From: an uncultured Verrucomicrobiae bacterium | Lineage (GTDB): Bacteria > Verrucomicrobiota > Verrucomicrobiia > Chthoniobacterales > JAATET01 | DNA: 64,000 nucleotides | Reading direction: 5' to 3' | NCBI GenBank assembly: GCA_963719495.1 | Contig: CAVRCI010000007.1 | Location: forward strand, 32,001 to 96,000 | Part shown: piece by piece, positions 41-13,976 of the stretch | Numbering within the stretch: the stretch's first letter is position 1 | Layout of the letters: every line of letters begins with the position of its first letter | Position numbers and translations under genes: made by a program | Notes under the pieces: model-generated | Database searches by the model: none | Told to the model about the DNA's origin: nothing | What the model saw: the letters and a program-made list of their open reading frames with translations, nothing else

Positions 41-1702
41 GTGCCCCTCAACGACGACTACATCATCGACATCCTCATCGAAGCCGGACTTCTCACCCGT
101 TCGCAAGTCGACGAGGTCCGAGCCAACGCTCCCGAAGGCACCACGATCACCGACGCCCTCGTCCAGGCCAACCTCCTCAGTCACGAAGACATCGCCCGCA
201 CCCTCGCCGCCAACGGTGGCATGGACTTCGTCGACCTGACCGCCATCACGGTCCCGCCGAACGTCACCGAGATTCTTTCCGCCGAAGACGCTCGCCGCTA
301 CCACGCGGTCCCGATCTACGCGACCGACAGTTCGGTCACCATCGCGGTCGACGACCCCATGGCCTTCGAAACCTTCGACAGCCTTGGCTTCCTCCTCAAA
401 CGCGAAGTCGAATTCGTCTGCACCACCCCCGAGCAGCTCGAACAGGCCCTCGGACAATACTACGGCGCCGCCGAGAGTCTCGGCAGCGACCCGACGTCGG
501 AAATGGATCTCAGCGACGACGGCGAAGGCGACGCTCCCATCATCAAGATGGTCACGAGCCTCCTGCTCGAAGCCTACAAGGCCCGAGCCTCCGACATTCA
601 CCTCGAGCCGCTGGAAAAATCGTTCCGCGTCCGCTTCCGCATCGACGGTGTCCTCCAGGAAATGCAGTCCCCGCCGAAGAAGCTCCAATCCGCCATCGTC
701 TCCCGTCTCAAGATCATGACCGGCACGATGTCCATCGCCGAGAAGCGCCTCCCGCAGGATGGCCGCATCCAGGTGAAGGTTGGCAAAAACGCGATCGATC
801 TCCGGGTCTCGACCATCCCGACGGTCCACGGCGAGTCGATCGTGATGCGAATTCTCGACAAGTCGGCCCTCGTCCTCGGCCTCCCCGAGCTCGGCTTCCT
901 CAGCGACGATCAGCAGAAATTCGAAAACCTCATCGCTCTCCCCGACGGCATCATCCTCGTCACCGGACCGACCGGTTCCGGCAAGACGACGACGCTCTAC
1001 GCCTGCCTCAATTACATGAATCAGCCGGATCGGAAGCTGATCACCGTCGAAGATCCGTGCGAATACCAGATGGGCGGCATCAACCAGGTCCAGGTCAACG
1101 CCTCCATCGGCATGACCTTCCCCGCCGCCCTCCGTTCCATTCTGCGTCAGGCGCCCAACATCATCATGATCGGCGAGATTCGTGACGCCGAAACCGCGAA
1201 CATCGCGATCAACGCCTCCCTCACGGGCCATCTCGTGCTCTCCACCCTGCACACGAACGACGCCCCCGCGGCTGTCGCCCGTCTCGTCGACATCGGCGTC
1301 CAGCCCTTCCTCGTCTCCTCCTCCGTCCGCGCCGTCATGGCCCAGCGTCTCGTCCGTCGCCTCTGTCCGAAGTGCAAGGAGCCCACCGAGATCGCCGACT
1401 TCGAACTCATCGCCCTCGGCCTCGAGGCATCCCAACTCACGAACGCCCAGCCCATGAAAGCGGTCGGTTGCGACGCCTGCCGCGGTCGCGGATTCAAGGG
1501 CCGAATGGGCATCTTCGAAGTCTTCATCATCGACGACGAAGTCCGCCACATGATCAACAACAACGCCTCGACCATCGCCCTGCGCCAGCGCGCCCGCGAA
1601 CTCGGCATGCGCACCCTCCGCGAGGACGGCATCCGCAAAATCCTCTCCGGCTCCACCACCGCCGACGAAGTCATCACCGCCACCGCCGCCGACCTCGCGT
1701 GA
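41..1702 (+). CDS. pilB: GspE/PilB family type II secretion / type IV pilus assembly ATPase (copy 1)
   Basis: Walker A GPTGSGKTTT, LRQAPNIIMIGEIRD, GHLVLSTLHTNDA, CxxC...CxxC zinc motif, N-terminal MshEN-like region. Confidence 0.9.
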   Translation: MPLNDDYIIDILIEAGLLTRSQVDEVRANAPEGTTITDALVQANLLSHEDIARTLAANGGMDFVDLTAITVPPNVTEILSAEDARRYHAVPIYATDSSVTIAVDDPMAFETFDSLGFLLKREVEFVCTTPEQLEQALGQYYGAAESLGSDPTSEMDLSDDGEGDAPIIKMVTSLLLEAYKARASDIHLEPLEKSFRVRFRIDGVLQEMQSPPKKLQSAIVSRLKIMTGTMSIAEKRLPQDGRIQVKVGKNAIDLRVSTIPTVHGESIVMRILDKSALVLGLPELGFLSDDQQKFENLIALPDGIILVTGPTGSGKTTTLYACLNYMNQPDRKLITVEDPCEYQMGGINQVQVNASIGMTFPAALRSILRQAPNIIMIGEIRDAETANIAINASLTGHLVLSTLHTNDAPAAVARLVDIGVQPFLVSSSVRAVMAQRLVRRLCPKCKEPTEIADFELIALGLEASQLTNAQPMKAVGCDACRGRGFKGRMGIFEVFIIDDEVRHMINNNASTIALRQRARELGMRTLREDGIRKILSGSTTADEVITATAADLA

Positions 1703-1829
1703 ACGAGTCCAATGTCAAAAGTCCGACGTCGAAAGTCGTGAGGCCGCAGGCCGCATTGTCCCGACCCGCTTTCACCAACTCGCCGACCTTTGCCATTCCG
1801 ACCCTCCGACCTTCGACTCTCCGCTCCCT

Positions 1830-3530
1830 ATGAACGCCACCCAAGTCACCGACATCTTCCAGGACGCCAACCTCATCACGCACGGTGTCGCCAAGGAGCT
1901 TCAACGTGAGTGCACCGAAAGCGGCAAGCCGATCTATCAGGTCATGGTCGACGGAGGTCACGTCTCCGAGGATATTTTCTACCAGACCATCGCCGACACG
2001 CTCGGGGTCGAACGTTACGACCTCACCGAGTTCGCGCCCGGCCCCGAGATCCTTCAGCTGATCCCCGGCGGCCTCGCCCGCCTGCACGGAGCGCTGCCCA
2101 TCGGAGCCTCCGAGAACACGATCTTCGTCGCGCTCACCGATCCACTCGACGGCCAGGCCGCCGAAGATCTCCGCTTCGCCCTCGGTCGCGAGATCCAGGT
2201 CGGCGTCGGCCAGAGCATTCCCCGCGTCGAAGCCCTCATCGCCGAGTCCTACGGCAACGAGGATTCTTCGATGGAGGACATCCTCTCGCAACTCGGCAGC
2301 GGCGGCATCGAATTCGGCGAAGACGGCGTCGTCACCGACGATTTCGATCCGAACGCCGTGGCCGCGGAAGCGAACGCCACCCCGATCATTCGCTACGTCG
2401 ACCTCATCCTCGACAAAGCCATCCAGGCGCGCGCTTCCGACATTCACTTCGAACCCTTCGAGACCGAATTCAAGGTCCGCTACCGCGTCGACGGCGCGCT
2501 CTACGAGATGGACCCACCCCCGCGCCACCTCGCGCTCCCGGTCATTTCCCGCGTCAAGGTCCTCTCCAATCTCAACATCGCCGAGCGCCGCCTCCCGCAG
2601 GACGGTCGCATCCAGCGCGTCATCAACGGAAAAACGGTCGACCTGCGTGTCTCCAGTCTGCCCACCCAGTTCGGCGAATCCGTCGTGCTGCGTATCCTGG
2701 ATCGCTCCGCCGTCAACCTCGACCTCGAGACGCTCGGGATGCCGGATTACATCTACAACTACATCCTCGAAGTCATCCAGAAACCGAACGGCATCTTCAT
2801 CGTCACCGGCCCGACCGGCTCCGGCAAGACCACCACGCTCTACTCCTGCCTCCGCAAGATCAACACGATCGACTCGAAGCTCCTCACCGCCGAGGACCCG
2901 GTCGAATACGAAATCGAAGGCCTCATTCAAGTTCCCATCCAGGACGGCATCGGCCTCACCTTCGCCCGCGTCCTCCGCGCCTTCCTCCGTCAGGACCCCG
3001 ACAAGATCATGGTCGGAGAAACTCGTGACATCGAAACGGCCCAAATCGCCATCCAAGCGTCACTCACCGGGCATCTGGTATTTTCCACGCTCCACACCAA
3101 CGACTCCACCGGCGCCGTCACCCGACTCGTCGACATGGGCGTCGAGCCGTTCATGATCTCGGCCTCGCTCGAGTGCGTCCTCGCGCAGCGCCTCATCCGC
3201 CGCGTCTGCCCGAAGTGCAAGACCGCCTACGAGCCCACGGAAGCCGTCCTCCAACAGCTCGGCCTCTCCGCCTACGATATCGGCGACAAGACTTTCTACT
3301 ACGGAAAGGGTTGCGATCATTGCAACCACACCGGCTACCGCGGTCGCAAAGGCATCTACGAACTCCTCAAAATGTCTGACCCGATCCGCGAGCTCATCAA
3401 CAACCGCGCCCCCGGCGTCGTCCTCCGGCAGAAAGCGATCGAGCTCGGCATGACCACCCTCCGGGAAGACGGCCTGCGAAGCATCTACGACGGCGACAGC
3501 ACCATCGAAGAAGTCCTCAAATACACCTGA
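1830..3530 (+). CDS. pilB: GspE/PilB family assembly ATPase (copy 2)
   Basis: GPTGSGKTTT, TAEDPVEY, LRQDPDKIMVGETRD, GHLVFSTLHTND, CPKC...CDHC. Confidence 0.9.
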   Translation: MNATQVTDIFQDANLITHGVAKELQRECTESGKPIYQVMVDGGHVSEDIFYQTIADTLGVERYDLTEFAPGPEILQLIPGGLARLHGALPIGASENTIFVALTDPLDGQAAEDLRFALGREIQVGVGQSIPRVEALIAESYGNEDSSMEDILSQLGSGGIEFGEDGVVTDDFDPNAVAAEANATPIIRYVDLILDKAIQARASDIHFEPFETEFKVRYRVDGALYEMDPPPRHLALPVISRVKVLSNLNIAERRLPQDGRIQRVINGKTVDLRVSSLPTQFGESVVLRILDRSAVNLDLETLGMPDYIYNYILEVIQKPNGIFIVTGPTGSGKTTTLYSCLRKINTIDSKLLTAEDPVEYEIEGLIQVPIQDGIGLTFARVLRAFLRQDPDKIMVGETRDIETAQIAIQASLTGHLVFSTLHTNDSTGAVTRLVDMGVEPFMISASLECVLAQRLIRRVCPKCKTAYEPTEAVLQQLGLSAYDIGDKTFYYGKGCDHCNHTGYRGRKGIYELLKMSDPIRELINNRAPGVVLRQKAIELGMTTLREDGLRSIYDGDSTIEEVLKYT

Positions 3531-3649: not shown

Positions 3650-3751
3650 GTGATCCTCACCCGGACCGCCCAACGCCCACGCGAAGCGATCCGCGACGAG
3701 GAGCCTTCTCTGCGACTCTGCGACTCCGCGCAAGAACCAATCGGCAATCCC

Positions 3752-3961
3752 CCGGTCGACGACAGCAACGACCCGGTCAACCATCGCAACCCCCTGACCG
3801 CTGACCGCAACGACCCGGTCGACGATCAAAACGACCCGTTGAACGACAGCAACGACCCGATCGATCCTAGCAATGGCCCGCTCGACGACAGCAACGAACC
3901 GGTCGATGGCAACAACGGCGCGTTCGACCATCGCAACGACGCCGCAGCTCCTGACAACCAT
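3752..3961. repeat. Degenerate 21-bp tandem repeat, about 10 units, consensus CCGGTCGACGACAGCAACGAC
   Basis: Units phased by eye; AAC/AAT at unit positions 16-18 in all ten; + frame reads as the heptad PVDDSND. Confidence 0.85.
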
Positions 3962-4091: not shown

Positions 4092-4576
4092 TATGCGTTG
4101 AGCGCCGCTGTCCCGAACAGGGGGGGGGGAGGACGTCTCGTCCTCCCGATTCGAACGTGCGGACGAGACGTCCCCACCCCGTTTTTTCCGATCCCGAGGG
4201 AAATCGTGCATCTCCGGCCATCCAACCTCTCCGACACGCAGAATCACGCTATACTGAGATAGGAAGTTGAGAGTCCATAGTTGAGAGTTGAATGCCTAAA
4301 ATCAACGGCTTGCAGGAAATGGGGCATTCACCTTCTGGGTGATCTCGCAATCCGACGCAAGTCGCCCATTTTCAACTCTCAACTACCAACTCTCAACTAT
4401 CCACTTTTCCTTTCAGGTTTAGCGCCGCTGTCCCGGACGCGGGGGGAGGACGTCTCGTCCTTCCGATTCGAGCGTGCGGACGAGACGTCCCCACCCCGTT
4501 TATTCCGATCCCGAGGAAACTCGTGCATCTCCGGCCATCCACCCTCTCCGACACGCAGAATCACGCTAAACACATA
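4092..4576. mobile_element. Composite non-autonomous element (MITE-like) with terminal inverted repeats and target-site duplication
   Basis: Left end TATGCGTTGAGCG; reverse complement of right end TATGTGTTTAGCG; CCCACCTGCG repeated at 4082-4091 and 4577-4586; two ~150-bp direct repeats (4101-4251, 4421-4568) around a ~170-bp element with GTTGAGA/TCTCAAC inverted ends. Confidence 0.7.
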
Positions 4577-4754: not shown

Positions 4755-5468
4755 ATGAAAGACGAATTCGCCAATCGCGCCGGAATGCACCGCACGGTGC
4801 TCGAAACCCTCGATCAACCCGCCTATCGGACCATCTGGGAGGATCAGAAGCCCAAGGCCTTCTCCCGAAAGGCCCTCGAGCTACCCGGCATGATCACCCG
4901 CCTGGAGGAGTTCGCCGCCTCCCAGACCCGCGCCATCACCGGCCACGCCGGGCGCAAAGCCGACGAAGAAGCCGACGTCATCGACCTCTGCCTCACCATC
5001 GGCAAAGCCCTCGCCGCGTATTTCGAAGAAACCGGCCGCCTCGACCTCGCCACCGAGGTGGAGAAAAGCCCCACCGCCCTCGAGCGCATGCGCGACGAAG
5101 CCCTCCTCGCCCACGCCGTCACCCTCAAGCAACGGCTCGACGAAGCCCTCACCGCCGACGCCGCCACCCTCGAGGACGACTACGACCTCACCCCCGCCGA
5201 CGCCACCACCCTCGGCACCGAGACCCAGGAATACCGCGACGTCATCGCCTCCCCGCAAACGGCCATTGCCCAGCGCAAAGCCCTCACCCGCGTGCTCAGG
5301 CCCGAGTTCGCCAAAGTCTCCGCGCACTTGGCCAGCATGGATCGCCTCATCCCCACCTTCCGCAAAACCGACCCCGGCTCCCGCTTCGCCGACGCCTGGA
5401 CCACCGCCCGCGTCGTCCGAGACTTCGGCCGCGGACCGAGTGCCAAAGAGGGCGGACCAGAGGCTTAG
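4755..5468 (+). CDS. Hypothetical, probably all-alpha protein (237 aa)
   Basis: ATG start, host-like high-GC codon usage, helical composition; no tyrosine-recombinase motifs. Confidence 0.75.
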   Translation: MKDEFANRAGMHRTVLETLDQPAYRTIWEDQKPKAFSRKALELPGMITRLEEFAASQTRAITGHAGRKADEEADVIDLCLTIGKALAAYFEETGRLDLATEVEKSPTALERMRDEALLAHAVTLKQRLDEALTADAATLEDDYDLTPADATTLGTETQEYRDVIASPQTAIAQRKALTRVLRPEFAKVSAHLASMDRLIPTFRKTDPGSRFADAWTTARVVRDFGRGPSAKEGGPEA

Positions 5469-5487: not shown

Positions 5488-5570
5488 CTCGAAAGCATAC
5501 TCGAAAGCATACGAGACAATTCTTCCGCCTATTCCGAAAGCAACAACATCAATCTAATCAACTGTTCGAC
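5488..5570 (+). other. Candidate attI-like integron recombination site
   Basis: GTTCGAC at 5564-5570 is the exact reverse complement of the R'' box GTCGAAC (6058-6064) that closes cassette 1; no attC arms upstream; CTCGAAAGCATA tandem at 5488-5511 and a third CGAAAGCA at 5535-5542. Confidence 0.5.
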
Positions 5571-6057
5571 TCATTGTGAGCCTCCGGCGGATGACTATAT
5601 TTCGCTCTTACATATTCGGACGCCGTCAGGGGACACCACATCTTGTTTCAAGCGGTCGGGTTCTTTTTTTTCGACCAGCGCAGGACGGAGGATCGGGGCC
5701 TAGGCAACAAACCCAGTTTCTCAACGGATAGAATATTTTGATTTTCGACCAATCGTTCGGAAGTCACCAGATGTCCCAACAATCGTTCCAAGCTTCTATT
5801 TGTGAGCTTGATGCCCCCTCTCTATTCCAATTCAGCCTCTACCCCCTACAATCTTCCTGGCGTATATTTGTGAGCTTGATCCCAAGCCCCCCGCTCCAGT
5901 TCAGCCTTTACTCTCTACAATCTTCCAATCGCATTTCAGTGATTCCAATCGCGAAGCCTCTTCGAAGGTTTGATCGTCATTATTGGAGTGCCTTCGGTAG
6001 AGATACGGAGGGGTTGGCTTGAGGAAGTCACGATATGCGTAGTTTGAACAGATGCGC

Positions 6058-6183
6058 GTCGAACAAGGCGCTGCAGCCAACCCCTAGCCGCTTCGCGGCG
6101 GGGGTTGCGCGGACCCGCTACTCGCAGCCCACCTCAGGGTTGGCTTGGTTCCCCGCTCAGGGTGGCTGAGCTTGACGTTAGGC
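6058..6183 (+). other. attC site 1 (126 bp)
   Basis: GTCGAAC-AAGGC-GCTGCAGCCAACCCCT...AGGGTGGCTGAGC-TTGAC-GTTAGGC; L''/L' boxes pair with one extra base. Confidence 0.9.
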
Positions 6184-6366
6184 CTTATACAAATGCGAGC
6201 ATTCATTCTTTAAGAGCGATTTCGCCCAGAAAATTTCTCCGTAAGTGGAAAATATCCAACTGCCTCTCCCGCAAATTCATCCCTTTCGCACTAAGCTAAA
6301 ACCACACACTTTGGCAAGCGCACTAACTCAGCAACACACCTCACTAAACCAAACACCCTAAATATC

Positions 6367-6747
6367 ATGTCATTTCTTCCTGCCGTTTCAGCCCGTATTG
6401 CAGCGTTACCCCCCACCGAACCAGAAAGGATTTTTCTAGAATTTATGGAGGTCAATGCGGTAGGGCGCGCAAATTCAAAAGCTTGGTCGATCATTGAATC
6501 GCACCTCCATACCAGAGGGATCATTTTGAATCAGAGACAGTTTCAACAAGGCATTCTTAAACGAACCCGTGAAGGCAACGTATATATTGGATCGAATGAT
6601 CATGGAGTTGGGAGGGGATACTTCATCATCGACGAAATCGAGGATGCCGAGTTGATGCGAAACTGGTATCAGACGCGGATTGACCGAGAGAATGTTCGCT
6701 TGGCTCATTTGCGTAGTGTAGCCGCTCTCTCCGGATGGACGATTTAG
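6367..6747 (+). CDS. Cassette 2: hypothetical protein, possibly a winged-helix/phage-like DNA-binding protein
   Basis: 126-aa ORF whose stop abuts attC2; pattern VGRANSK...IGSND...GYFII followed by a C-terminal helix. Confidence 0.7.
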   Translation: MSFLPAVSARIAALPPTEPERIFLEFMEVNAVGRANSKAWSIIESHLHTRGIILNQRQFQQGILKRTREGNVYIGSNDHGVGRGYFIIDEIEDAELMRNWYQTRIDRENVRLAHLRSVAALSGWTI

Positions 6748-6873
6748 GCCTAACAAGGCGCTGCAGCCAACCCCTAGCCGCTGCGCTCTTGGGGTTGCGC
6801 GGACCCACAACTTCCAGAAAATCACCAGACAAATTCGGTTGCCCGTTCAGGGTGGCTGAGCTTGACGTTAGCC
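6748..6873 (+). other. attC site 2 (126 bp)
   Basis: GCCTAAC AAGGC GCTGCAGCCAACCCCTAGCCG ... TCAGGGTGGCTGAGC TTGAC GTTAGCC. Confidence 0.92.
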
Positions 6874-6879
6874 TAAAAT

Positions 6880-7254
6880 ATGAAATCTCTTGCCATGCTT
6901 ACACTTAGCTTACTGCTGATTTCGTGCGGAGAGGATGCACAACCATCTTCCGAAACCTTTGCGTTTCCCGATGTAGGGGTTATATCGGTTAAAAATGGAT
7001 GGAATAGATCCGAGATTGGAGCTAGAAATAACTTTATTGGGACGTCGTGGACGAAATCGAATGCTCAGTGTGCCGATTATAATGGCGATGGAAAGATTGA
7101 TTATTTGAGAGTCGTTTCTCCTCCCGATTCCTATGAACATTATATTCTTATTGATGGTGATTTTGATGGCTATTTTGACGAAGCCGCAGGTTCCACTAGC
7201 GATACTGTTTTGAGTGACAAAAACTTATCTGTGCCACGTCTGATAGATAAATGA
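6880..7254 (+). CDS. Cassette 3: putative lipoprotein with DxDxDG-like Ca-binding motifs
   Basis: Signal/lipobox MKSLAMLTLSLLLISC; DYNGDGKID and DGDFDGYFD; ORF fills the cassette. Confidence 0.75.
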   Translation: MKSLAMLTLSLLLISCGEDAQPSSETFAFPDVGVISVKNGWNRSEIGARNNFIGTSWTKSNAQCADYNGDGKIDYLRVVSPPDSYEHYILIDGDFDGYFDEAAGSTSDTVLSDKNLSVPRLIDK

Positions 7255-7261
7255 TAAACTC

Positions 7262-7327
7262 GGCTAACAAATCCGTAGACTCAATTCTCTCGCTGCGCTC
7301 GTTCTTGAGTCACGGATAACGTTAGCC
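7262..7327 (+). other. attC site 3 (short, 66 bp, different family)
   Basis: GGCTAAC AAATC CGTAGACTCAA ... TTGAGTCACG GATAAC GTTAGCC. Confidence 0.85.
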
Positions 7328-7703
7328 TCTGATACAATGAATAAAATTAGTGTATTAGGAACGATGACCATGAGGATCGACCACAACCGCTCCGGTTCGA
7401 CTCTCTCGAGCACCGTTCTCACATGCCAAGACGCCGACATTCAGTAACCCTGTCCAAAACCTAAATGAGGAGGAACGACGAATTCACTTTTACGCGTAGC
7501 GCCGAATTTTTTTGGCCGATTTTCGCATTTTTATGCAGACGTTTTTCTTGGGATCAGGACATACTACTTTACCGATAGAGCGACCGGGAAGACATGATTC
7601 AAGATCGCCACAACTACTGTAGCTTCACAACCCGCATCGACACATCAACTTCACCAGAAACCTTTGAACGCGATCGATAGCGCCTATCGAGAAACACAAT
7701 ACA

Positions 7704-7828
7704 GGCTAACAAGGCGCTGCAGCCAACCCCTAGCCGCCGACTGTCACTCCAAACTTGCATCCGCTGTGTGGCGCAACTGCGTTGCGCGGCTCAACGCCCG
7801 TTCAGGGTGGCTGAGCTTAACGTTCGCC
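7704..7828 (+). other. attC site 4 (125 bp)
   Basis: GGCTAAC AAGGC GCTGCAGCC ... GGGTGGCTGAGC TTAAC GTTCGCC. Confidence 0.9.
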
Positions 7829-8164
7829 TGATTTATTGGAGTTAAGATCAAGGGAAAGTTCAGAGTTGCTCGATTCCCTTCGGCATACGATTGAGCACGA
7901 TTCTGGTTTTCCATTGATCACTCCCGATTCGACGCCAAGGGTTATTCGCCTGCCATGCACGCTTGAGGCGCTCACGCGGCATGAGTAGATCCATCCAAAA
8001 TCCGTTCCGGCCTGCTCTTGTCACGAGCAATATATTTATAATGCGGAGTCAATCTGGACCACAGAAGCATCGTCTACTGAATGCTCTAACGAAGCCGCTT
8101 GCTGGGTTTGACCATCGTCGGCCTGTCGGACGATCGGGTCCTCCATTGTGCAGTCACCTCTTTC

Positions 8165-8293
8165 GACGAACAAGGCGCTGCAGCCAACCCCTAGCCGGCC
8201 TACGGCAAGCCTTGGCCGACCGATCCCCCTCCCGCAAACACCTTTCCTAGACGTTCGTTGCCCCGCTCAGGGTGGCTGAGCTTGAGGTTAGGG
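8165..8293 (+). other. attC site 5 (129 bp)
   Basis: GACGAAC AAGGC GCTGCAGCC ... GGGTGGCTGAGC TTGAG GTTAGGG. Confidence 0.88.
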
Positions 8294-8334
8294 CATATCA
8301 GATACCAATAAATACAACCAACACCAATACAACC

Positions 8335-8667
8335 ATGTCACTCAAAACTGAAGTTACCAAACTTATCGAAGCAAAATCGGTTCTCGAAAACGCGGAGAAA
8401 GATTACGAAGCACAACGACTCGTCGTTCGAAACGGACTGATCGAAGAAAGCCGCAATACAATTGATCACGATGGATTTCGCATCGCCCGTGTAGATGATA
8501 AGATCGTTCGACGATTCAGTATCGCGGAACTTCGGGAACAACTCCAATGGCATTATCTCACAGACCCCGCAATCGAGGACATTATTTCCCATTCGAAGGC
8601 TGAAAGCGTTATTAAGGGAGTTCTCAGAGTAACTCGAATCCCCCAGAAAAACAGAAGTGCAATCTGA
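8335..8667 (+). CDS. Cassette 6: hypothetical protein (110 aa), coiled-coil N-terminus
   Basis: ATG at 8335 after an AC-rich leader; in frame with track ORF 8272..8667. Confidence 0.7.
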   Translation: MSLKTEVTKLIEAKSVLENAEKDYEAQRLVVRNGLIEESRNTIDHDGFRIARVDDKIVRRFSIAELREQLQWHYLTDPAIEDIISHSKAESVIKGVLRVTRIPQKNRSAI

Positions 8668-8830
8668 AATTAGCTACTTCAAGCAGGACATGCATTCTCT
8701 GCCGCAATTAAATTTCCGCTTTAAGCTTCAACATCATCGGTTTTAAAACAGCATATTTTGGGAATTGGTAAGGAGCAAAGTCAGCTTTGACTGACATCTC
8801 TTAAATTTCTTCTAATATTCCCTTGTCTCG

Positions 8831-8956
8831 CCCTAACAAGGCGCTGCAGCCAACCCCTATCCGCTTCGCTCCTGGGGTTGCGCGGACCTTCTACCGGCAG
8901 TTGATCACCAGTTGCATCCGGTCGCCCGTTCAGGGTGGCTGAGCTTGACGTTAGCT
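8831..8956 (+). other. attC site 6 (126 bp)
   Basis: CCCTAAC AAGGC GCTGCAGCC ... GGGTGGCTGAGC TTGAC GTTAGCT. Confidence 0.9.
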
Positions 8957-8989
8957 TTTAATACAGAAATACAACACGATACACACAAC

Positions 8990-9460
8990 ATGAAATCGAC
9001 CATCGTAACCTCAGCCATCGCCCTAATCTCTGTATTGCACGTCTACGGAGATTCTTCTGTATCGCCCATCGCGACACTCCCCTCAGGCACGGTGACCATC
9101 AACCAACAGTCGGGTGAAGCAAAACTGTCTATAAATGTATCCGGGCCACCAATCTCAGATTTCTTCGGGACCACAGTATTTTGGAGGGCTGTTCCTGGAA
9201 CTGCAGAGTGGGTTCGCGATTTCGATTCATTGACCGGATCAGTAAAGTTCCTCACGGGTGAGACAACTAAAGACTTAATTATCGGAATACCCGTTTCACC
9301 ACCATTTGCAGGAACACGAACGTTTTCGGTAAGACTTGAGAATAGATCGGATTATTCAGTCGGCACACCAAGCTCATCAACTGTTCAGATAATCGGCGCA
9401 ACCAGCCAAGCCCCTCAACCGGGACCAACGATCACCGTTCGTAGCAAGGAGTTACGTTGA
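8990..9460 (+). CDS. Cassette 7: secreted Calx-beta domain protein, probably truncated; no attC follows
   Basis: Signal peptide MKSTIVTSAIALISVLHVYG; Calx-beta-like GTA...DF...GSVKFLTGETTK...TFSVRLEN...VGTPSSSTVQI; stop 18 bp before the IS. Confidence 0.7.
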   Translation: MKSTIVTSAIALISVLHVYGDSSVSPIATLPSGTVTINQQSGEAKLSINVSGPPISDFFGTTVFWRAVPGTAEWVRDFDSLTGSVKFLTGETTKDLIIGIPVSPPFAGTRTFSVRLENRSDYSVGTPSSSTVQIIGATSQAPQPGPTITVRSKELR

Positions 9461-9478
9461 ATTGAAGGGGTCAGTCCG

Positions 9479-11033
9479 GAATGGCACTGCTTTAAGCCAG
9501 TTTTCGGGGAGAAAGATGGAGGGAGATCCGCTGATTTGGTAGATTAAAGTGTGAGCAGCAACCAACCATTTCTCAGCGGATTCCCAACTCAAATATGTGG
9601 CAAAATGCGGCGGCGTCTGCAAGCGGTCATCGCGGAGCGACGGAGCGCATTGGCAGAGTCATCCATAGCGACCTACGCGCTGCAGTTTTCCCACATCCTG
9701 CCGGCCGATTTTTTGGAGTCACTCTCGCTCACGCAACGGGTTCGGCAGTATTGCAATGTGGTCGTCTTCTGGGTGTGGCTGGCTCAGATTTTAGAGGCCA
9801 ATGCGTCGCTCTCCAAAGCGGTGAGTCTGGTCCAATGCTGGTGCGGCGAGGCGGGTCTGCCAGTTCCCAGTGGGGATACCGGAGCCTTCAGTCGGGGTCG
9901 GGGACGACTCGGAGAGGCGTTTCTGGCCGGGGCGAGCCAACGCGTGCGCACTCATCTGGGAGCCCGGATCAGGCCCGAGGATACTTACAAAGGACACGTG
10001 GTCAAATCCATCGACGGCAGCTCGTTGACTCTGGATGACACAGCGTCCAATCAGGAGCAATATCCGCAACCCACGAGCCAGAAAGCGGGTTGCGGCTTCC
10101 CGGTCATGGGCATCATGGGCGTGCTCAACCACGCCCATGGCGGATGGGAGGATTTCGTTGAAGGGCTGCAGAGCGCGCACGATGCACCGATCTTTCACAA
10201 GCTCATGCACTGCTTCGAACCCGGGGATTTACTTTGCGGTGATCGCGCTTTCTGCACCTACGAGTTGATGTCCACTCTGGACCAAAGGCAGGTCCATACG
10301 CTCATGCGTTTGCACCAATCCCGGCACCGCGTCCTGAACTGGAGCCGTGGCAAAAAGCTCGGCAAGCACCAACGCCTGGTTACTTGGAAGAAGCCCGCTA
10401 AACGCCCCGTGGGCAGCACCTTGAATGATTTGGAATGGGCGGCACTACCCGAAGAACTCCAAATCCGTCTCATTCGCTTTGAATACAAGGATCGCGCCGG
10501 GAGCAAACGCCGCATGGTCCTGGCCACGACCATGACTGACTCCCTTCGATACGACTGGCGCGAACTGGCCGCCATCTACGCCCAGCGCTGGGACATCGAA
10601 CTACGTCTGAGGGACGTGAAAACCACCCTCGCCATGGATCACCTGCGCGTCAAAACGCCCGCGACCGCCCGCAAGACTCTCACGATGAGTTTGATCGCCT
10701 ACAACCTTCTCAAGGCCACCAGCCAGCAAGCCGCGCACAGCACCGGGCAGGACCTCCGACTCATGAGTTTCAAAGCCACTCTGGACACCATCGTCGCCAA
10801 CACCGCTCGCTACCTCCGCCGTCAAAAACACGCCCGCCTCATCAAGGAAATCTGGACCGACACCATCGAAATGATCGCCGCAAAAATCATCGATCTCCGC
10901 CCCGGCAGGCACGAACCTCGTGCCCAGAAGAAGCGACCTAAAAACTTCAGTTATCTCACCGCTCCTCGCGCTCTCTACCAAGAAATCCCTCACCGCGGCA
11001 AATCCCGATCCTTCGCTTAATGCAGTGCCATTC
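9479..11033 (+). mobile_element. IS4-family insertion sequence
   Basis: Ends GAATGGCACTGCTTTAAGC / GCTTAATGCAGTGCCATTC; 11-bp direct repeat GGGTCAGTCCG at 9468-9478 and 11034-11044. Confidence 0.9.
9551..11020 (+). CDS. IS4-family DDE transposase
   Basis: IDGS, GDRAF, YAQRWDIELRLRDVK (YREK-type), RPGRHEPRAQKKRPK. Confidence 0.92.
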   Translation: MSSNQPFLSGFPTQICGKMRRRLQAVIAERRSALAESSIATYALQFSHILPADFLESLSLTQRVRQYCNVVVFWVWLAQILEANASLSKAVSLVQCWCGEAGLPVPSGDTGAFSRGRGRLGEAFLAGASQRVRTHLGARIRPEDTYKGHVVKSIDGSSLTLDDTASNQEQYPQPTSQKAGCGFPVMGIMGVLNHAHGGWEDFVEGLQSAHDAPIFHKLMHCFEPGDLLCGDRAFCTYELMSTLDQRQVHTLMRLHQSRHRVLNWSRGKKLGKHQRLVTWKKPAKRPVGSTLNDLEWAALPEELQIRLIRFEYKDRAGSKRRMVLATTMTDSLRYDWRELAAIYAQRWDIELRLRDVKTTLAMDHLRVKTPATARKTLTMSLIAYNLLKATSQQAAHSTGQDLRLMSFKATLDTIVANTARYLRRQKHARLIKEIWTDTIEMIAAKIIDLRPGRHEPRAQKKRPKNFSYLTAPRALYQEIPHRGKSRSFA

Positions 11034-12107: not shown

Positions 12108-12647
12108 ATGACCACTCCGGGAAAAGTCATGGTGATGCCCGACAAGGGGAAGCGTGATCCGCGCTTGGTCACGATCCGACGTGGCGGCGTGCTCGTTGAT
12201 TCCGATCATCGTCTTCTCGCCGTCTGGGCGGCGGATTGTGCCGCGCATGTCCTCCACCATTTCGAGGATCGGCATCCCCGGGATTCCCGTCCACGAGAGG
12301 CAATTCATCAAGCGCGTGCCTGGGCACGCGGCGAGATCAGCATGACTCGGGCGCGCACCGCTGCCTTCGCCGCTCACGCCGCGGCGCGGGACGCCTCCGG
12401 GGCGGCGAAGGAAGCCGCTCGAGCTGCTGGCCACGCGGTGGCGGTCGCCCACATGGCCGATCACGAACTCGGCGCCTCAGCCTACGCGATCCGGGCGGCG
12501 CGGGCCGCAGTCGGATCAGACTTGGAGACGGAAGTTGGCCGGGAGGAGTGTCGTTGGCAGCGGGCTCAGCTCCCGGTCGCGATTCGCGATCTCGTTTTGG
12601 ACGATCAGCGACTCCGGAATGCCAAGTGTTGGTCTCTCTTCGACCAA
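12108..12647 (+). CDS. Imm5-like (putative immunity) protein; no stop, reads in frame into the next gene
   Basis: RDPRLVTIRRGG...WAADCAAHVL...RPREAI...ARAAGHAVAVAHMADHELG...WQRAQLP...CWSLFD. Confidence 0.7.
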
Positions 12648-12749
12648 GCCGAACCAGCTGTCCCTCCGGAAGCCTGCCCCGACGCCGCGGTCCCGACACT
12701 CGATATTCCTTTCTGCCTGGGCCCGATTTCGGGCAGTCTCCTTTCCAAT

Positions 12750-13976
12750 ATGGCAAACGCAATGGTTATCGGCATCGGCGGAGTCGGCTCCGTCATCGGC
12801 CAGAAACTCCACGAATACGACTGCTTTGACCGGATTGTCCTCGCCGACATGGACCCAACGTTCGCGAAGCAACTCGCCGCCCGCACGCCGAACAATCGCT
12901 TCACCGTCGTCGCCGCCAACGCGATGGATACCGCGCGCCTGACCGCACTCATGCAGGAGCACTCGATCGACGTGACGTGCAACGCCTGCGTCTGCCAGAC
13001 GAACTACTCCGTGATGGAAGCTTGTCTGCGCGCCGGTTCCCACTACCTCGACATGGCCGCCGACATCTACTCGGCCCCCGGCGTCAAGCGCGCGGGCAAG
13101 AATTCCTTCGAAGCCGAGATCGAGATGTTCAACCAGTCCTACCTCGACAAGGGACTGGCCGGCATCCTCTGCATGGGCATGGACCCGGGCGCCGTCAACG
13201 TCTTCGCTCGCTGGGCGATGGACCGGCTCGACACCGCCAGCTCGATCCGCGTCCTCGACGCCGATAACGCCGAAGTCCGCGGCTACCGGTTTGCCGTTCT
13301 TTTCTCGCCCGAAACCTTCTTCGAAGAGCTCGGCGCCGTCCCGTATTTCGTCCGCGACGGTCGAGTCGTCTCCGGCCGTCCGCTCGAGACCGAGGTCGAG
13401 TGGGTCCGATTCCCGGATCCCATCGGGTTGCAGAAAACCTACGCGGTCGCTCACGAGGAAGGCGTCTCGCTCGGCATCTACCCGCCCTTCGTCGAAAAGG
13501 GCGTCCGCTACTCGGTCTTCAAGTATTCCGTCCCCGACAAGGTTGTGAACATCTCGAAAAGCCTCGCGCTCCTCAACCTCGACACTTGGAAAAAGATCAA
13601 AGTCGATGGAGTCGAAGTCTCGCCCGTCCGCGTCGCGTCCGCGAGCCTGCCCAAACCCGCCGCCCTCGGCGCGACTGTCGACGGCTACTCCTGCGTCGGC
13701 ACCGAGGTCCGCGGCACGAAGGACCGCAAACGCGTGGAATACTTCGTTTATTCGATGGATTCCCACCGCGAGACCTACGAAAAATACGGCTACAGCCTCA
13801 CGCTCGTCCAGACCGGCATCCCCCCCGCCCTCACCGCCCGACTCCTCGTCGAAGGCAAAATCCCCGAGCGCGGTGTCATGATGCCCGAGCACATGAACCC
13901 CGACGCCCTCATGGAAGCCTTCCCTCGCGAAGGCCTTCCCATCTTCGTGGAAAAGCGCGAGGTCGAGCGGCTCTAA
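12750..13976 (+). CDS. Saccharopine dehydrogenase family protein (carboxynorspermidine dehydrogenase-like)
   Basis: Rossmann VIGIGGVG, HYLDMA, GMDPGAVNVF, FSPE, HEE, QTGIPP. Confidence 0.85.
   Translation: MANAMVIGIGGVGSVIGQKLHEYDCFDRIVLADMDPTFAKQLAARTPNNRFTVVAANAMDTARLTALMQEHSIDVTCNACVCQTNYSVMEACLRAGSHYLDMAADIYSAPGVKRAGKNSFEAEIEMFNQSYLDKGLAGILCMGMDPGAVNVFARWAMDRLDTASSIRVLDADNAEVRGYRFAVLFSPETFFEELGAVPYFVRDGRVVSGRPLETEVEWVRFPDPIGLQKTYAVAHEEGVSLGIYPPFVEKGVRYSVFKYSVPDKVVNISKSLALLNLDTWKKIKVDGVEVSPVRVASASLPKPAALGATVDGYSCVGTEVRGTKDRKRVEYFVYSMDSHRETYEKYGYSLTLVQTGIPPALTARLLVEGKIPERGVMMPEHMNPDALMEAFPREGLPIFVEKREVERL

Follow-up and report, generated by a model that had tools for sequence, protein, structure and literature searches.

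Seven gene cassettes behind an attI-like site in a verrucomicrobial genome: a probable satellite platform of a superintegron on another contig

Integron integrases (IntI) recombine the folded bottom strands of attC sites, excise cassettes by attC x attC recombination and insert them at a double-stranded attI site that is read by sequence (PMC11023631). The sedentary chromosomal integrons of Vibrio hold up to 301 cassettes and up to 3% of the genome (PMC11023631), and gene-less promoter cassettes have been described in them (10.1101/2023.11.21.568050). The closest described elements without an integrase are the attC clusters that lack integron-integrases (CALINs); these are small groups of two or more attC with no nearby intI, with unknown cargo and with IntI elsewhere in the genome (PMC4889954), all of which is shared by the array described here. 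This array lies in a 64,000-nucleotide stretch of contig CAVRCI010000007.1 of an uncultured Verrucomicrobiae bacterium, the whole of which is called the window, and comprises seven cassettes behind an attI-like site. It is probably a satellite attI platform that receives its cassettes in trans through the IntI of a superintegron of about 200 cassettes located on contig C2 of the same genome (G000; C1 and C4 are other contigs of it), its activity being deduced from sequence comparison.

The window does contain a genuine array, made up of seven mobile gene cassettes (Table 1). A sequence-only reading of the window had claimed six attC sites, five of them with near-identical arms and 125-129 bp long. 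All six were found: five belong to one family with common arms (126, 126, 125, 129 and 126 bp) and the third is of another type, with 66 bp. The start core is a perfect complement of the cassette's own R'' box in five of six cassettes, with one mismatch in cassette 5, exactly as had been listed. In the circle form, where each site regains the start core of its own cassette, the bottom strand of all six sites has the canonical attC hairpin as its minimum-energy DNA fold: the R boxes are paired, the central spacer is unpaired and the L boxes carry extrahelical bases. For the array form this hairpin is the minimum-energy fold in three sites, and lies within 1.7 kcal/mol of it in the other three. 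The core rule and the folds agree in identifying the units as integron cassettes, as had been proposed. The first extrahelical base of attC sites is usually G, and it is C in those of this family. Neither the seventh cassette nor the attI-like site at 5528-5570 had been flagged in that reading.

The cargo had been described as entirely unknown, and this part has to be withdrawn. The Calx-beta domain in cassette 7 is above the Pfam cut-off (PF03160, E 3e-7, 30.8 bits, cut-off 27), and cassettes 1, 4 and 5 look gene-less: variation is even over codon positions in the families of cassettes 1 and 5, and the longest stop-free stretch of cassette 4 has at most 44 codons in all frames. Cassette 1 contains an internal repeat with a period of 69 nt, and the open reading frame (ORF) of cassette 3 has a lipoprotein-like signal, as read from its sequence. 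PADLOC identified no family in the four window cassette ORFs, and an Rfam scan of the window returned only two sub-threshold microRNA matches, both outside the array. The GC content is 0.41-0.51 over the array and about 0.63 around it.

Six attC are present, and tblastn searches of the 64-kb window with eight IntI proteins (E<0.1) detected nothing IntI-like; the array is a CALIN by definition. In a complete integron intI adjoins attI; here the upstream neighbour is a co-oriented helical gene without recombinase match in Pfam or in a fold search.

The array head was compared with the attI of integrons that have an integrase. The first cassette of the main integron on C2 is preceded by ATCCAATATACT immediately before GTT, that of the window by ATCTAATCAACT immediately before GTT, and the joint pattern of these sites has only these two matches in G000. 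The integrase-adjacent attI of relatives present a CCYAT box at 35-37 nt from the crossover, and the window CCTAT is at 36. A two-block profile trained on nine integrase-adjacent attI of other genomes was run over the 105,000 scorable GTT positions in G000: the main attI obtained 52.9, the window site 25.8 (rank 2) and the next position 14.3. A bipartite pattern of the family attI had 17 matches in 17 family genomes, with one in the reversed control, and exactly two in G000. The site together with its upstream box had no match when metagenomes were scanned. By its match to integrase-adjacent attI, the array head is, as far as sequence tells, a second attI of the lineage type.

The main integron is located on C2 and its intI is an open frame without internal stop. 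It scored 425.6 bits against TIGR02249 (cut-off 265), the sole match above cut-off in G000, and the alignment of its product with Vibrio IntI4 (PDB 2A3V, E 1e-86) takes in both the catalytic residues and the insertion specific to IntI. The protein has 535 aa, about 220 N-terminal residues being without Pfam match; such long frames are common among relatives. Another TIGR02249 match, on C1 (248.7 bits, under the cut-off), was considered as the serving integrase and rejected, family attC and attI being absent nearby. Behind the C2 intI, 206 paired family attC (196 plus 10, ten being inverted) were identified from C2:27,416 to 175,148. The superintegron (L001, G000:C2:27416-177349) has attC of 124-130 bp and occupies about 148 kb, 3.3% of the genome; it contains gaps bounded by insertion sequences (IS) and a 10-cassette inversion between IS copies. 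The match between own core and R'' is perfect in 137 of its 182 adjacent cassettes and is not due to chance, since 1000 shuffles gave a mean of 16.4 and a maximum of 27. These 182 cassettes form 117 families, of which 98 are singletons; the largest ones (28, 12 and 7 copies) have no conserved ORF, and a member of one high-copy, likely gene-less family occupies the first position at the main attI. The search of the genome for further arrays and intI that had been suggested earlier thus found both on C2. The term integrase-less, applied previously to the array, is correct for the window, but an intact IntI with 206 attC is present in the same genome. The homogeneous attC were rightly taken as typical of a sedentary chromosomal integron, given the same-family sites beside an intact intI, and the suggestion of a lineage-specific system is sustained by the presence of this attC family in the six genomes of the genus. 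At a separate locus, G000:C4:228800-229560, two truncated family attC enclose a lone cassette, whose two overlapping small ORFs resemble a toxin-antitoxin pair by eye.

Four window cassettes have twins on C2: cassettes 1, 3, 4 and 5, with identities of 100, 99.5, 99.5 and 97%, which drop with distance from the window attI. No twin was found on C2 for cassettes 2, 6 and 7. The twins are tens of kb apart on C2 and their order is shuffled with respect to the window. Cassettes 3 and 4 are adjacent in both places and moved as a pair; the other shared cassettes are not adjacent, and the C2 neighbours differ. The non-colinear order and the differing neighbours indicate that the window array was built cassette by cassette and not moved as a block.

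Table 1. Coordinates, strand and main attributes of the features of the window discussed in the text.
Feature	Position	Strand	Attributes
21-nt tandem repeat, 7-10 copies	3741..3960	+	upstream of the helical gene; longest period-21 array of the genome by Tandem Repeats Finder, 7.4 copies
237-aa all-helical protein gene	4755..5468	+	co-oriented with the cassettes; ends 96 bp before the crossover; 94% orthologue in G004
Orphan attI-like site	5528..5570	+	CCTAT box at 5528; core ATCTAATCAACT; crossover between G and TT at 5564/5565
Cassette 1	5564..6176	+	likely gene-less; attC 6058-6183; body 494/494 identical to C2:68900; 7 copies on C2
Cassette 2	6177..6866	+	126-aa ORF 6367-6747, weak PHROG 2113 match; attC 6748-6873; unique in genome
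Cassette 3	6867..7320	+	124-aa ORF 6880-7254; attC 7262-7327; 99.5% twin C2:110572
Cassette 4	7321..7821	+	attC 7704-7828; 99.5% twin directly behind the cassette 3 twin on C2
Cassette 5	7822..8286	+	likely gene-less; high-copy family with 30 members on C2 at 92-97% identity; attC 8165-8293
Cassette 6	8287..8949	+	110-aa ORF 8335-8667, no family; attC 8831-8956; unique in genome
Cassette 7	8950..~9463	+	156-aa ORF 8990-9460, signal-peptide-like start, Calx-beta domain; attC lost to IS
Insertion sequence ending the array	9464..11033	+	DDE transposase 9551-11020, PF01609 E 1e-20; 99.7% copy C2:755692

The locus was compared across the genus. The sister species, G004, has the 21-nt repeat, the gene and the site as well, in stretch L022; three unrelated cassettes begin there at the identical GTT, with IS elements after them, and the nucleotide identity of the flanks between the two genomes is 86-93%. 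No window cassette is present at the orthologous site of G004, where the second cassette (L022:10711-11637) encodes a Lit/peptidase U49 anti-phage homologue (PADLOC E 2e-49). The presence of different cassettes at the same junction in both species is indirect support for use of the site as attI. In G001, G003 and G005 the upstream ATPase gene is almost directly joined to the downstream dehydrogenase gene, without gene, site or array, and these are likewise absent in G002, where the downstream DNA is unrelated. The absence in the congeners and the differing cassettes of G004 point to a segment gained in the lineage of G000 and G004 and reloaded since their split. No IntI remnant was found in the window or in L022.

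Host-type attI copies away from intI, mostly followed by cassettes, were identified in three families of a single order: f1 (including G000 and G004), f5 (including G034 and G020) and f13 (including G028). Besides the window site, the f1 sites include G004:C7:1435395 and others in G012, G011 and G006. The first of these heads 188 attC arms over 114 kb, without IntI match upstream; the region (G004:C7:1118273-1435411, L137-L156 and L076) contains this array, which has attI and no intI, and another one of 193 attC arms. Genome-wide, G004 holds 412 attC arms over at least four arrays, and two intI loci. The three attI copies of G006 have 280-740 bp in common. Pattern matches in G007, G009 and G006:C130 were counted as chance, having no family attC behind. 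A further member of the family, G003 (97% complete, 4 contigs), has 65 family attC arms with no IntI above cut-off and no attI match.

The f5 attI type, by a pattern that includes the first five core letters and with at most one mismatch, was identified 10 times in G034, 5 in G020, 2 in G175 and once in G095, and was absent in the other 397 of 401 genomes; the reversed control had 3 matches in total. G034 has one intI. With at most two mismatches, the fetched regions of G034 and G020 contain 15 f5 sites away from intI, 13 of them with an R'' box or attC within 3 kb. In one array of G034 (L097, G034:C3:238920-242150) three attI stand in tandem, two with near-identical upstream DNA, as if attI-bearing units had themselves been inserted. 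In f13, G028 holds three attI copies. Two lie apart from intI and are accompanied by 262 and 342 bp from the intI 5' end and spacer, with 95-96% identity; this is duplication caught in the act. The extra sites of each lineage match the attI of their own lineage and no other. The shared flank decreases from several hundred bases (G028, G006) to 15-31 (G034) and to the boxes only in the window, a series that would fit attI duplication followed by erosion, in an order suggested by flank length.

The proposed mechanism is as follows. The C2 IntI would excise cassettes from the main array or from incoming DNA by attC x attC recombination, and the circles would then be inserted at the window attI by attI x attC recombination, newest first; loading at position one agrees with the fall of twin identity with distance from the site. 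The window attI probably arose as a duplicate of the intI-proximal attI region, its flanks having eroded while the site of about 40 bp was kept. IntI1 is able to carry out recombination between two attI sites and between attI and secondary sites. Recombination of either kind could be one route of attI export and IS-mediated duplication another. Expression of the cassettes would depend on transcription that continues from the 237-aa gene and not on a Pc promoter, such read-through being the likely source because neither a Pc-like promoter nor a terminator-like site was found, the latter on the + strand between the gene and the attI-like site. Gene-less cassettes may add promoters, as in Vibrio (10.1101/2023.11.21.568050).

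Several observations weigh against loading in trans at an exported attI. No recombination event was observed at the site, whose use is deduced. In the core, 3 of 15 positions of the window site do not agree with the main attI, and a core-only profile ranks the site third, behind one without attC. The bipartite pattern was devised with the window site already known, so that only the two-block profile is blind. No sigma-70-like promoter was found on the + strand upstream (5 sites in 6.1 kb against 3.3 +/- 1.8 in shuffled sequence), and the upstream DNA of the window has no blastn match to any main attI region; the duplication origin is visible in G028 and G006 and not at the window. In G006, G011 and G012 (97-98% complete, 90-240 contigs) attI copies are present and no IntI was found, so attI sites can outlive their integrase. 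Finally, cassettes may possibly be supplied from outside the genome, since cassette 1 has a 98.8% copy in G004.

The last but one of these points leads to an alternative in which the array is left over from a second integron, once complete, that lost its intI by deletion in place; the attI would be real and not exported, whether or not it is used today. It is recognised that CALINs can originate through intI loss (PMC4889954), and some genomes speak for this alternative: the two intI loci of G004 together with its 188-attC array with attI and no intI, the internally deleted intI of G042, and the three family genomes just mentioned. However, no IntI remnant exists upstream in G000 or G004, and the lack of the whole gene-site-array segment in three congeners speaks for gain rather than for an ancestral integron locus; in addition, ten losses would be required for the ten extra sites of the one-intI genome G034, and the 100% identical first cassette points to recent exchange. 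We therefore regard this alternative as unlikely. Less likely still is a secondary-site (attG) hotspot resembling attI by chance, where a cassette landed off target and others were added later at attC. IntI inserts cassettes at very many genomic GWT sites, a proposed source of small CALINs (10.1101/2022.09.11.507474); the window GTT fits GWT, and its core match to attI is imperfect. The attG consensus is short, though, with its conserved motif to the right of the crossover, and is described as unlike attI (10.1101/2022.09.11.507474), whereas conservation in the window is to the left, bipartite and with attI spacing, the original right flank having been replaced by cassettes, and extra sites elsewhere match the attI of their own lineage only.

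Transfer of a superintegron block by insertion sequences or rearrangement would be in line with the IS that ends the array and with the IS-bounded gaps and the 10-cassette inversion of the main array. It is largely refuted and very improbable: the left end is an exact junction between G and TT without IS, the order is not colinear with C2, three of seven cassettes are absent from C2, and G004 holds other cassettes at the same junction. An assembly chimera joining main-array cassettes to the window contig is hardly credible. It would explain the 100% identity of cassette 1 to its C2 copy, and no independent contig spans the attI junction among those of three public DNA runs, where the joints stem from repeats at 85% likeness; but the same junction exists in an independent genome (G004), three cassettes are unique, and six of six cassette boundaries obey the core rule.

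The attI-like site of the window is preceded by the 21-nt repeat and the 237-aa gene. In two of the three families the extra attI copies frequently lie next to 21-nt-repeat/helical-gene modules comparable to this one. The protein is predicted to be a helical bundle (pLDDT, the per-residue model confidence, of 91). Pfam identified no family in 39 aligned members, Foldseek with the model gave no match at E<=0.001, the best VIA Z was 8.9, a level of generic helical bundles, and the Atlas neighbours are unnamed clusters, with DUF6261 as a weak lead only (0.88 on 32% of members). A contig scan with the protein matched the sister genome alone. A 44% identical homologue of the gene in G034 directly precedes an orphan attI. 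A 21- or 42-nt tandem repeat was present within 1.8 kb upstream of 9 of the 15 f5 orphan sites, one of the nine having been found via the gene (8 of 14 without it) and three sites sharing one array. For random points the proportion was 5.3% in 400 kb of G034 and 1.2% in G000. G034 and G020 belong to one genus and are not independent for this association. The 21-nt repeat was absent at the other orphan attI tested (0 of 3 in f1, 0 of 2 in f13), and a hidden Markov model of the 237-aa family detected no member in the genes beside other orphan attI. A fixed order of gene and array was rejected, as attC followed in one of 20 homologue loci examined (L028), after 8 of 28 fetched loci without tblastn match were dropped and with a crude attC detector that recovered 2 of the 6 window sites. 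Six further repeat/gene modules in G034 and G020 (L111-L116) and two in G068 have no attI match. The simplest account is that these modules mark variable loci whose transcription favours attI retention. A wider and tentative idea, which may well be wrong, is that of a distributed integron: one integrase would serve a network of exported attI platforms (two in G000, about eleven in G034), located preferentially beside 21-nt-repeat/helical-gene modules that supply transcription or aid spread, and many integrase-less arrays would be independently regulated slots for a shared cassette pool.

Other features were identified in the window. Between the 21-nt array and the 237-aa gene (4124-4571) a dispersed palindromic repeat occurs in two copies of 131 bp, which enclose a pair of inverted heptamer repeats; this element is absent there in G004. 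Upstream of the variable segment (41-3530) are two tandem PilB/GspE-type ATPase genes with MshEN and T2SSE domains, and downstream (12108-13976) an Imm5-like domain is fused in frame with a saccharopine-dehydrogenase-like gene, the two being separate ORFs in G004. GC skew in the window tracks the coding strand.

CALINs, trans mobilisation and verrucomicrobial integrons were already known (PMC4889954, PMC8618304, PMC9668308), and the origin and activity of CALINs are an open question (PMC4889954, 10.1101/2022.09.11.507474, PMC8618304) for which this locus supplies a named site, a cognate integrase and cognate attC for direct assay. If the satellite reading is true, integrase-less arrays would be working outposts and not debris; if it is general, the integron model would give an integrase several insertion points in place of a single one, and the expression context would differ from point to point. 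According to PMC4889954, attI cannot be searched for in most integrons, and standard tools seek it by exact match to classes 1-3 near intI only, with the consequence that satellite attI sites go unseen. Training on intI-adjacent attI and scanning CALIN heads is a test usable on every genome with both. The available parts of PMC8876359, PMC9668308 and 10.64898/2026.03.17.712381 do not mention attI at a distance from intI, and neither orphan attI in multiple copies nor superintegrons of Verrucomicrobia were the subject of any paper found in a literature search that left outside most subscription papers and supplements (with possible attI lists).

The C2 locus resembles the Vibrio integrons in its 206 homogeneous attC and repeated gene-less cassettes, and differs in being verrucomicrobial and in the extra N-terminal residues, about 220, of its IntI. 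The genus has superintegrons in the Vibrio size range, a large unstudied cassette pool including at least one anti-phage homologue; G004 has 412 attC arms against 301 cassettes for the largest Vibrio integron (PMC11023631), and its 188-arm array exceeds the largest CALIN of PMC4889954, with 114 attC. The origins given there for CALINs are secondary sites, intI loss and rearrangement; the window array has instead a recognisable host-type attI at its head, which two species have reloaded with different cassettes, and a relative holds up to ten such repeats. A CALIN with its own attI is known from the Shewanella prophage M16-3 (PMC9892861), a single case in a defective prophage adjoining its integron and, in the parts of that source available, without comparative evidence of reloading; the window array is chromosomal, its integron is on another contig, and the arrangement recurs in three families. 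With attG sites and single attC sites lacking integron-integrases (SALINs) the locus shares IntI insertion away from the integron and the crossover between G and TT, while attG sites have a short GWT consensus and a motif on the right-hand side (Loot et al., 10.1101/2022.09.11.507474) and the window site has a left-hand attI architecture of 40 bp. The CALINs of Xanthomonas are likewise integrase-less and located at fixed loci across species, with intI elsewhere; no attI analysis is reported in the available parts of that work (10.1101/2025.06.18.660453), and the window result suggests checking these fixed-locus CALINs for attI.

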